A stretch of 64,000 nucleotides of DNA from the NCBI GenBank assembly GCA_964016885.1, contig OZ024745.1, positions 104,470,001 through 104,534,000 of the forward strand, written 5' to 3'. Numbering within the stretch: the stretch's first letter is position 1; each line of letters opens with the position of its first letter. The DNA comes from Eledone cirrhosa. Lineage: Eukaryota. This document shows, piece by piece, positions 8,462 to 10,912 of this stretch. The notes beneath the pieces are model-generated. The model did not search any database. It was not told the origin of the DNA and saw only the letters and a list, made by a program, of their open reading frames with translations. Position numbers and translations under genes: made by a program.

Positions 8462-8526
8462 TATTTTGTCTGATGAAGGCATACCATAATTTAACTTGGT
8501 ATCCTTGAAATATGTATAATGAAATA
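8462..8526 (+). ncRNA. Minimal type I hammerhead, same family as 60194
   Basis: TATTTTGT-CTGATGA-AGGCATACC...GGTATCCTT-GAAA-TATGTA-TA-ATGAAATA; downstream flank homologous to 60255-60295. Confidence 0.75.
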
Positions 8527-9009
8527 AATATGGTTTTATAAATATAGTTTCCATTTGTTAATATCGTATATATATATATATATATATATATATATATATA
8601 TATATATATACAAAATTTGTTTTATAAATAGTGACATACCCAGGAATCGGAACTTAACGGTTCACGTTCCGTAAGGATAGTGAGAGGAAAGAGGAAAAAT
8701 ATATTTGTTGAATTGCCAACAAATTAAATATCTCTTTAGATATATATATATATATATATATATATATATATATATATATATATATATATATATATATATA
8801 TATATATATATATATATATATATATTTAATACAATAACAGAGATAGCTTAAAGCTAAACTCTGACTGGTAACCATCTCACTCAACAAACATTAGGTTATA
8901 TGTTAATATAAACCCAATTTAAGTGTTTGGGGTGCTAACTATATGTATTGTGTGGAAAGCCAGTTGTATTATTTTATGAGATATAATTAAAGTTAAAATA
9001 TATCTCTCT

Positions 9010-9134
9010 TTCCAAACAATTGTTTCATTATAAGTTTTCTACAAATTAGGAGATTGTTTCCAGTTTATGTAGAAGCCTAACATATATTCGTGTAAGAATA
9101 TATTTAGGTGGGTGCTTATAAATCATCAGTGGAA
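9010..9134 (-). ncRNA. Hammerhead with large branched stem II
   Basis: TTCCA-CTGATGA-T-TTATAAG[two hairpins]CTTATAA-T-GAAA-CAATTG-TT-TGGAA; palindromic stem III ACAATTGT. Confidence 0.72.
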
Positions 9135-9241
9135 GCCCATTAAACTTTGATATAAGAAAAAATTCTTACCGCAGTAAAAAATCGTGTCTGTTAAGCTGCT
9201 CCCTCACGCATCGAATGACCGCCAAATTTGAAATTCCAGCA

Positions 9242-9352
9242 GTTTTTGACTGAGGAAGTATTATAGCGTCACGAAGCGGGAAGGGGAGACAACTAATACA
9301 CGAGAAAAGAAAAAAATAATATTCACGCGGGTTAATTAGTTTTTTCAAAAAC
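9242..9352 (+). ncRNA. Extended hammerhead-like fold
   Basis: GTTTTTGA/TCAAAAAC 8-bp stem I; CTGAGGA at 9250; GTATTA/TAATAC stem II; A/T-rich stem III; 9-nt extra linker before GAAA. Confidence 0.35.
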
Positions 9353-9520
9353 ATTATCAATCCAACGTGTTAAGAACTCAATTGAAGTTAAAAAAATAAA
9401 TGCATGCGTGTATTAATTACACACGCATATAGATATTTTCTTAGGCTAAAAACAGAAGTCATATATATATATATATATATATAGAAAGATTTGAATGGAT
9501 ACAGTTTAGTTGAAAGGAAT

Positions 9521-9640
9521 TTATTGACACGTGTTTCTATAACAGTTACATAACCTAAAACAGCTGCTATCTACAAACTTTTAGTTATGCAGACATTCAA
9601 TATTTCAATGTTATTATTTACTGTCATTTCATCAGAATAA
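9521..9640 (-). ncRNA. Hammerhead with large branched stem II
   Basis: TTATT-CTGATGA-A-ATGACAGT[two hairpins]ACTGTTAT-A-GAAA-CACGTG-TC-AATAA; palindromic stem III ACACGTGT; GUC site. Confidence 0.75.
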
Positions 9641-9760
9641 TATTACTGAGGACATATATATATATATATATATATATATATATATATAAAGAAAAAGAGA
9701 TGAAATCGAAAATGCAACTGGAGTCTTATTTTTTTTTTTAAATATATATATTTATTTGGT

Positions 9761-9800
9761 TCCTTTACCGGTTTCGCAGTTCTTCTGCTTTTCAAAAGTA
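9761..9800 (-). ncRNA. Hammerhead-like variant (core TTGAAAA)
   Basis: CTT-TTGAAAA-GCAG-AAGAA-CTGC-GAAA-CCGG-TA-AAG. Confidence 0.5.
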
Positions 9801-10213
9801 GAGTTGAGATGGGAAGGTCTGTGGTTTTTCTCACATCTGTGGTTTTTCTCACATTTAAAAAAAAAAATAAGACTCCAGTTGCATTTTCGATTTCATCTCT
9901 TTTTCTTTATACTTTCACTCGTGTAGGACACCTCGGTTATTTTTCAATTTGTAAAAAAAAAACCTCACATATATATATATATATATATATATATATATAT
10001 ATATATATATATATATATATATATATATGTGTGTGTGTGTGTGTGTGTGTGTGTGTGTGTGTGTGTGTGTGTGTGAAGTAATTCCGTCGGAAAAAGTCCA
10101 TGAAAAAAGAGTGCTCTATGTAGGTAAGAGAGCTTAATAGTTATGTAATAAACAACATAATGCAATTATTCAATTTTTAAAAAATCCAAGTTCAATAAAC
10201 AGACCAGGATTTT

Positions 10214-10271
10214 TTCATTCTGAGGATTGAAAGCAAAATTTTTTGCTTTTAAGAAACCACTGGTAAATGGA
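10214..10271 (+). ncRNA. Type I hammerhead ribozyme, intact core
   Basis: Stem I TTCATT/AATGGA; CTGAGGA (10220-10226); stem II TTGAAAGCAAA/TTTGCTTTTAA; GAAA (10253-10256); stem III ACC-ACT-GGT; GUA site after 10265. Confidence 0.85.
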
Positions 10272-10747
10272 ATAATTGCATTATGTTGTTTATTACATAA
10301 CTATATATATATATATGTGTGTGTGTGTGTGTAGAAAGAGAGAGAGAGAGAGAGAGAGAGAGAGAGAGAGAGAGAGAGAGAGAGAGAGAGAGAGAGAGAG
10401 AGAGAGAGAGAGATTAATTAATTACTCTTTCCTCGAGTGCTTTGTGACAATCTTCGATGATTCGAGTGCTCATCTGCTACTTTCAGCTGTAACTTTGATT
10501 TTACTCATTAATATTATTATTTTTCTCATAGCCTTTATAATTAATTAATTAATTAATTAATTATTTAATTATTTGTTTGATAACCTAGTTGAGAGCTTAC
10601 CTTGGGACTGTGAATAAATCCTTTGTTCAGACTTTTGAATGTACCCGCCAAAGGTTGGTAAACTGATTTTCCTCTTTTTGAGAAATGCCACTTAACCTCA
10701 CTGACAAATTTACGACTACAGTCGAATGGCAGAGTTACCTCAGACCC

Positions 10748-10912
10748 GAAGAACGAAAAACCTGTTGATGAAGGGATATCCCCATTCCAGCTTAGGATGC
10801 ATTACTAACTTGCATATACATTATGCAACTTGGAATGTACCTTCCGCATTGCAGAAACTTATCGAAGATATTTATCAATTAATATCTATAGATTAGGTCC
10901 AGGTTCGTCTTT
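10748..10912 (+). ncRNA. Extended hammerhead-like fold (core TTGATGA)
   Basis: AACCTG/CAGGTT stem I with extension; GAAAC at 10854; GTC site 10897-10899; long stems II and III. Confidence 0.45.

Follow-up and report, generated by a model that had tools for sequence, protein, structure and literature searches.

The stretch of the Eledone cirrhosa genome analysed here (assembly GCA_964016885.1, contig OZ024745.1, positions 104,470,001 to 104,534,000 of the forward strand; 64,000 nucleotides, hereinafter the window) contains, within 2.5 kb, five complete type I hammerhead ribozyme motifs, A to E, that are genuine as motifs and for which cleavage is predicted from sequence. The interpretation that we consider quite probable is that this cluster is a pile of 5'-truncated 3' ends, that is, remnants of pseudo-long terminal repeats (pLTRs), of at least five unrelated families of Penelope-like elements (PLEs), each carrying a minimal type I hammerhead, which entered a single (TA)n tract on separate occasions. 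The cluster as such would carry little weight, since PLEs that insert into (TA)n are expected to leave such debris. Of more consequence are two unrelated high-copy families with a helix II of 91-96 nt, to be compared with published searches that stop at ~24 nt (PMC4209133) or at a spacer of 17 nt (PMC8557442), and four insertions that record both start sites of the reverse transcriptase (RT) and so provide a natural test of internal initiation and of priming by short TA homology.

The census was performed on both strands of the window with a strict descriptor (CTGANGA, helix II of up to 150 nt, GAAA, helix III, UH and stem I), the null model being dinucleotide shuffles with the microsatellites held in place. 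Within 8401-10972, exactly four motifs were detected, with cores at 8470 on the plus strand (A), 9129 minus (B), 9635 minus (C) and 10220 plus (D), against a mean of 0.003 in 1000 shuffles of this region (one hit in three shuffles, two hits in none); across the window, there are six against a mean of 0.025 (40 shuffles), the extra two being at 60055 minus and 60202 plus. A widened descriptor, set after E had been seen, which accepts the U3-A8 and U3-G8 variants of the core as well as a stem I of 3 bp but requires a palindromic helix III, adds only E (9795 minus), which brings the counts to five against 0.005 in the region and seven against 0.1 in the window; an E-type motif by itself appears in 4 of 1000 shuffles. 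Five of the seven motifs of the window fall within the 2.5 kb. Two further sites, G (9250 plus) and F (10765 plus), pass only a third descriptor that ignores helix II and was written after F had been seen (2 against 0.014 in 500 shuffles). In units A to E, the core CUGANGA/GAAA/UH is accompanied by a helix I and a helix II that both close at it, E being the U3-A8 variant, whereas helix II of F is open and G is weak in the same respect.

A preliminary description of this DNA had placed up to seven hammerheads here; its coordinates are the low ends of motifs, and all seven could be located. Five of these are solid and two are doubtful. The four cores that it listed first, at 8462(+), 9010(-), 9521(-) and 10214(+), are those of the strict census, and among the three weaker variants, 9761(-) proved to be the U3-A8 hammerhead E, whereas 9242(+), which is G, and 10748(+), which is F, are seen only by the descriptor blind to helix II. 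Among the checks that it proposed, the comparison with dinucleotide-shuffled controls favours the five; the Rfam hammerhead models yield no match at the gathering score and none at E up to 10 within 7000-12000, as would be expected if these models do not cover minimal variants.

The units and the second locus of family A are the following.

8253-8383, minus strand: inverted partial copy of unit A, with 34 nt of the 5' part, then, past the skipped hammerhead, the 3' end with a tail of 90 nt at 8253-8342
8384-8566, plus strand: forward copy of unit A with hammerhead A, ending in (TA)22
8611-8739, both strands: two more fragments of family A, ribozyme-less, bounded by (TA)n
8826-9460, minus strand: element B, ~635 nt, multi-copy, no open reading frame (ORF), (TA)n on both sides
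9010-9134, minus strand: hammerhead B, 5-bp stem I, core 9129-9123, helix II 9122-9027 (96 nt, branched)
9484-9653, minus strand: unit C, multi-copy, carrying hammerhead C and bordered on either side by (TA)n
9689-9854, minus strand: forward copy of unit E with hammerhead E, ending in (AT)17
9855-9968, plus strand: inverted partial copy of unit E, 53 nt at 100% identity, then a 61-nt tail
10076-10176, minus strand: inverted partial copy of unit D, 37 nt at 97%, then a 64-nt tail
10177-10301, plus strand: forward copy of unit D with hammerhead D, ending in (TA)7
59957-60392, two strands: second family-A locus, a 344-bp palindrome with (TA)n on both sides

Helix III is palindromic in all five hammerheads (6-9 nt: AUAUGUAU in A, ACAAUUGU in B, ACACGUGU in C, ACCACUGGU in D and ACCGGU in E), with self-duplex energies of -2.2 to -10.3 kcal/mol, and, dimer pairing left uncounted, the hammerhead fold of the five units is 1.7-7.3 kcal/mol less stable than their best fold as monomers. 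Helix II measures 30 nt in A, 96 in B, 91 in C, 26 in D and 13 in E. Hammerhead A combines stem I at 8462-8469/8519-8526 with a core at 8470-8476 and is predicted to cleave after 8518 (AUA... UA); the predicted sites of the others are after 9015 in B (GUU triplet), after 9526 in C (GUC triplet; 5-bp stem I 9640-9636/9525-9521, core 9635-9629), after 10265 in D (GUA triplet; core CTGAGGA at 10220-10226) and after 9766 in E (core TTGAAAA at 9795-9789, 4-bp helix II, 3-bp stem I). Sequence likeness among the five units does not go beyond AT-rich matches of 11-33 nt, with E of 0.015 or worse, in agreement with the earlier impression that they have little sequence in common.

The ends of the units speak for PLE insertions. 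Self-comparison of the window reveals an inverted 5'-truncated copy in A, D, E and the 60-kb locus, a short inverted stub in C (9641-9653) and none in B. A tail is present on one side only, of 90 nt in A, 64 in D, 61 in E and 92 at the 60-kb locus. An inverted 5'-truncated copy, a tail at one end and a bias to microsatellites characterize PLE insertions in the accessible part of PMC8557442 (Fig. 2), and in that of PMC11167929 the tail was mapped to two internal RT start sites and AT-rich DNA was cleaved. A (TA)6+ tract lies within 200 nt 3' of all seven predicted cleavage sites, compared with a background of 15.6% of window positions (either side), although the seven sites share tracts and hence are not independent. 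For three of the four junctions that lack a tail, the first 3, 4 or 5 bases of the tail are in TA phase (9.7% in the background for a run of 3); since the breakpoint may lie anywhere within the TA-phase match, this junction microhomology is only a lead. Families A, B and C are multi-copy.

Two earlier proposals are upheld by these observations, namely that a microsatellite tract was colonised repeatedly by distinct ribozyme-bearing families, for which the (TA)n junctions, the palindromic helix III and the multi-copy status of A, B and C speak, and that Penelope-like machinery was probably behind the insertions, for which the inverted copies with one-sided tails speak together with the same junctions and helices. 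Likewise, the interval was rightly said to be without an ORF, the frames of at least 90 aa running only through microsatellites. Microsatellites do separate the units as had been claimed, but B and G share one segment.

Family A supplies the cleanest PLE-type insertion of the window: its 60-kb locus carries a pair of diverging hammerheads (cores 60055 minus and 60202 plus) and has the 92-nt tail on the plus copy only. In unit A, a perfect 68-bp palindrome (8350-8417) links the forward and inverted copies, and the tail matches 60285-60381 at 78%; of the two ribozyme-less fragments, 8611-8668 on the minus strand corresponds to the region 5' of the core (86% to the 60-kb locus) and 8699-8732 on the plus strand to the end of the tail (94%). 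A lone tail end of this family also lies at 7809-7868 (87% to 8256-8300), within a long (TA)n tract. The three hammerhead copies of the family differ in stem I and helix III by pair-keeping changes only, with one two-sided change, in helix II; 93.9% of stem cells are paired and there are seven extra pair types, far above slid controls. The idea that family A follows the end of an ORF ('...YL*') was dropped, the frames differing among copies. Also rejected was the notion that inverted copies start at the cleavage site and so record cleavage in vivo: the inverted copy of D begins at most 1 nt from the predicted site, those of E and A ~20 and ~38 nt further, so that this is the case in one of three.

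As judged from published PLE biochemistry, the succession of events could have been as follows. A GIY-YIG endonuclease would nick AT-rich (TA)n DNA, and the RT would prime on the nick at one of two internal RNA start sites, yielding copies with or without a tail, and would halt early, often adding a second copy in inverted orientation. The TA tract would be divided by every such insertion, with fresh TA targets as a result, so that insertions would accumulate; a tendency of PLEs to insert beside earlier copies is reported in the accessible part of PMC6765202. In the parent elements, cleavage by the hammerheads would have required a dimer or the help of the element protein; according to the available text of PMC11167929, a PLE hammerhead cuts only with the element protein and is dispensable for insertion. 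Because there is no same-family partner nearby on the same strand, the present copies are predicted to be silent, and the same prediction applies to the 60-kb palindrome, the transcript of which would fold back on itself.

Several observations weigh against the PLE interpretation. The consensus pair G10.1-C11.1 is found in only one of the five units (E); this pair and a helix II of no more than ~24 nt are consensus traits of PLE minimal hammerheads, albeit not absolute ones. Element B has neither an inverted copy nor a tail and contains, upstream of its core, 320 nt of folded, ORF-free sequence. The tails of 61-92 nt exceed the published 30-40 bp. For family A, the pair counts do not beat a column-shuffle control (171 of 500, with 3 sequences only). 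Finally, no PLE ORF is joined to any unit: the only convincing match of 150 PLE-like proteins, and of a profile built from the 33 longest, is a fossil that lies apart from the units, and none of the 150 matches the cluster. Absence of the RT/GIY-YIG ORF from the copies is, however, what 5' truncation leads one to expect.

The fossil in question is the following.

1865-2185, minus strand: C-terminal GIY-YIG endonuclease fossil of a Neptune-type PLE, with one in-frame stop; a separate insertion

It has (TA)15 at its truncated 5' end and 1613 relatives at E 0.001 in HMMER searches, whereas a word-index protein search with the fossil gave no match. One relative has a Pfam GIY-YIG match just under the cut-off, and in the long relatives there are an RT-like stretch and a Neptune-type linker rich in Cys. 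The fossil previously noticed at 1865-2197 is therefore real, but its link to the cluster is circumstantial: its GC-rich 3' flank of ~160 nt contains no hammerhead core, and it shows no DNA similarity to the units. Nevertheless, a Neptune-type fossil beside (TA)15 implies that such machinery acted in this genome. In Octopus vulgaris, 31 recently active Penelope-like families have been described, with ribozymes unmentioned in the accessible part of the report (PMC13282606).

The copy status of B and C was assessed by comparing the region 8826-9653 with the contigs, and contigs only, of four (X1, X5, X6 and X7) of the 21 public sequencing runs listed for it, none of which is an RNA run. Run X1 yields 1667 contigs on this region, 535 of them at least 99% alike, with a summed word depth of 9,000-249,000, which is no copy number per se but is consistent with many copies; runs X5 and X6 contain several divergent versions of B. 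Overlapping contigs span 8826-9450, so that B is a single element of at least 625 nt. A loose end in X6 reveals one B copy that meets (TA)n at 9420. Unit C is free of substitutions in a single contig from each of X5, X6 and X7, runs under other organism labels; the contig from X6 extends 137 nt beyond C, with no match to B listed there, which hints weakly at a later insertion of B.

Under the PLE interpretation, B and C are most likely families whose hammerhead has a helix II of 91-96 nt. The 96-nt helix of B is branched (z-score -6.15) and the 91-nt helix of C is rod-like (z-score -5.25), with none of 200 shuffles equal, and both close one base from each core box. Six majority variants in the helix of B keep or improve the fold (-24.8 versus -22.4 kcal/mol), and only 1.4% of 500 random six-change sets did as well, the six coming from 40 of the 112 variants. 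By comparison, the published PLE-hammerhead descriptor limits helix II to 7 bp and a loop of 10 nt (~24 nt), and the longest among the 56 aligned motifs of Fig. S3 is ~23 nt in a by-eye reading (PMC4209133); in the accessible part of PMC8557442, a search spacer of 7-17 nt was used and half cores at 35-50 nt were remarked upon in Naiads. Literature searches on long or extended stem II with retrotransposons, and on cephalopod or octopus hammerheads, gave nothing on such a helix among the titles listed, although Lunse et al. 2017 (PMC5785218) may already include variants of this kind. We are inclined to believe that there is a class of PLE hammerheads with a helix II of 90-100 nt that standard descriptors have overlooked, and because published searches limit the length of this helix, PLE lineages scored as hammerhead-less may need re-screening. 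A pattern scan of metagenome contigs for the long-helix C-type motif gave 102 matches, of which 3 had a stem I of 3+ and a helix II of 4+; these three are one GC-rich sequence, without PLE protein or similarity to the window there, and together with the rest were set aside as chance matches, all poorer than C.

An alternative for some or all units, and foremost for B, is that they are monomers or fragments of non-autonomous non-LTR retrozymes, mobilized in trans by PLE proteins through a circular RNA stage. B is the only good candidate for a non-autonomous element among the units and may be a non-autonomous derivative: it is ~635 nt long, multi-copy and ORF-free, folds strongly (z-score -6.7 on the minus strand) and is covered contiguously over 8826-9450; moreover, retrozyme families can be largely monomeric and pLTR-derived, according to the available part of bioRxiv 10.64898/2026.07.22.740005. 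A long structured 3' untranslated region, however, would resemble B equally well, and the inverted copies and tails of A, D and E suit plain PLE insertions. Retrozymes are defined by tandem units in the accessible parts of PMC7229834 and of the same preprint; no unit in the window is in tandem, hence these are not retrozymes as so defined, and no tandem or circular joint is listed for 8826-9653 in the four runs, matches near 9454-9493 having been skipped. The choice of retrozyme-like elements as the default in the preliminary description is therefore not followed here, given that A, C, D and E have the appearance of plain PLE ends truncated at the 5' side, and we regard the retrozyme alternative as unlikely.

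Considerably less probable still is the possibility that B is a DNA copy of a viroid-like RNA with ribozymes of both polarities, B on the minus strand and a decayed G on the plus strand, spread to high copy by PLE machinery. The plus-strand partner would be the following.

9242-9352, plus strand: doubtful candidate G, antisense to B, 8-bp stem I, CTGAGGA core at 9250, UUU triplet

In favor of such an RNA, stem I of G is a perfect 8 bp, overlapping contigs connect the B core with the G core, positions 9302-9305 are GAAA, flanked by a G-C pair, in two contigs of X5, and the variants 9346 C>T and 9347 A>G leave stem I paired. Yet the stems of G are A/T runs, its hammerhead conformation is 6.7 kcal/mol less favorable than the best fold, and its helices, which are no better than shuffles (z-score -0.75 for helix II and +0.82 for helix III), lie inside a stronger hairpin; the change at 9304 is found in 0 of ~1400 depth in X1; element B folds into a branched structure, 61-64% paired, rather than a rod; and the lack of a listed circular joint counts here as well. 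That G is a hammerhead at all is doubtful. As for a host-selected array of self-cleaving sites acting jointly on a transcript, which the packing of five of the window's seven motifs into 2.5 kb and the (near) identity of unit C in runs under three other organism labels might suggest, it can be practically dismissed given that the strands are mixed, that the same-strand helix III pairs are unmatched (A/D +0.4, B/C -0.9, B/E 0.0 and C/E -1.1 kcal/mol), which speaks against heterodimer cooperation within the cluster, that the 60-kb pair lies on opposite strands within a palindrome, that identity of C is equally expected from a shared insertion in close relatives, and that insertion bias explains the density.

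The other doubtful motif lies at the far end of the cluster.

10759-10905, plus strand: doubtful candidate F, 6-bp stem I, TTGATGA core at 10765, long helix III, GUC triplet

Its 82-nt insert folds (z-score -3.4) but stays open at the core. Degenerate inverted arms resembling short interspersed nuclear elements (SINEs), at 10726-10764 and 10900-10965, enclose F and form a long distal stem; because the distal stem I is such an inverted arm, the shuffle null is unfair for F. We rate F as a tentative candidate, somewhat better than G but with the balance tilted against a hammerhead.

The surroundings are rich in other repeats. One SINE family is present in many copies (1-137, a head-to-tail run at 5764-7264, 10923-11040, 14105-14342, 29653-29827, 55396-55590 and 61518-61700), and the copy at 10923-11040 resembles an octopus SINE. 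A near full-length long interspersed nuclear element, which we take to be RTE-like, occupies 15851-19224 on the plus strand, with endonuclease and RT frames of 320 and 692 aa, and 27228-27881 (plus) is a 3' fragment of the same family. A second repeat family (3668-4046, 19393-19624, 27978-28076, 29007-29188 and 37922-38028) contains a 48-nt tandem unit, with 7.9 copies at 3668-4046. Frames at 36754-37675 carry 'EQRTNLKFLVRLGKTPSE' and 'VITGDESWIF' and presumably derive from a decayed mariner transposase. At 35340-35761, an imperfect 420-bp palindrome (66%) lies between TA tracts, with no hammerhead motif by the descriptors used. The nearest host exon identified lies at 26157-26546 and belongs to an MBOAT-family gene (Pfam PF03062, E 4e-9), which it terminates at 26157 as the last exon; both the ORF list and the translation assign it to the minus strand. 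No tRNA genes were found.

How do these units compare with known systems? With animal non-LTR retrozymes, in the accessible parts of PMC7229834 and bioRxiv 10.64898/2026.07.22.740005, they share the type I hammerhead, the absence of an ORF, the low GC content and the likely dependence on PLE proteins; they differ in the lack of tandem repeats and in having PLE minimal hammerheads rather than those of the canonical loop1-loop2 type. A specific link to octopus Naiads was sought and dropped: four of the five core motifs are absent from the supplement of PMC8557442 and the fifth lies within an ORF (line breaks every 70 letters can hide matches), and the 3' ends of the units are by eye unlike the published octopus Naiad 3' ends. 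Separately, the 3' ends of Naiad_Obim and Naiad_Ovul contain GAAA...CTGATGA near the end, arranged as in a permuted hammerhead; the annotation given there is that of a half core only (PMC8557442).

The mode of insertion resembles that of PLEs such as the (TA)n-preferring Neptune and Naiad elements, as portrayed in the available portions of PMC8557442 and PMC11167929: truncated copies with an inverted partial copy, a tail at one end and (TA)n targets, the longer tails (61-92 rather than 30-40 nt) setting the present insertions apart. Three of the four junctions here share 3-5 nt of TA phase, whereas priming by the anole element in vitro was non-homologous (PMC11167929, accessible part).

Compared with the PLE hammerheads of PMC4209133, the differences are the helix II of B and C (96 and 91 nt), ~4 times the longest of the 56, the G10.1-C11.1 pair in only one of five units and the absence of an attached ORF. 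PLE hammerheads are, in the parts of that paper at hand, mostly single motifs from truncated elements, with weak activity even as dimers. The agreement with them, as far as those parts go, extends to the type I architecture, a stem I of 3-8 bp, the palindromic helix III, the U3-A8 variant and both U17 and A17 triplets, as well as to the coexistence of many divergent families in one genome, mostly as singles or as opposite-strand pairs 100-700 bp apart. Down to the level of individual motifs, E shares its core with the row S. mansoni(4), which is PLE-linked, and U17 triplets such as that of B are common there (PMC4209133, Fig. S3).

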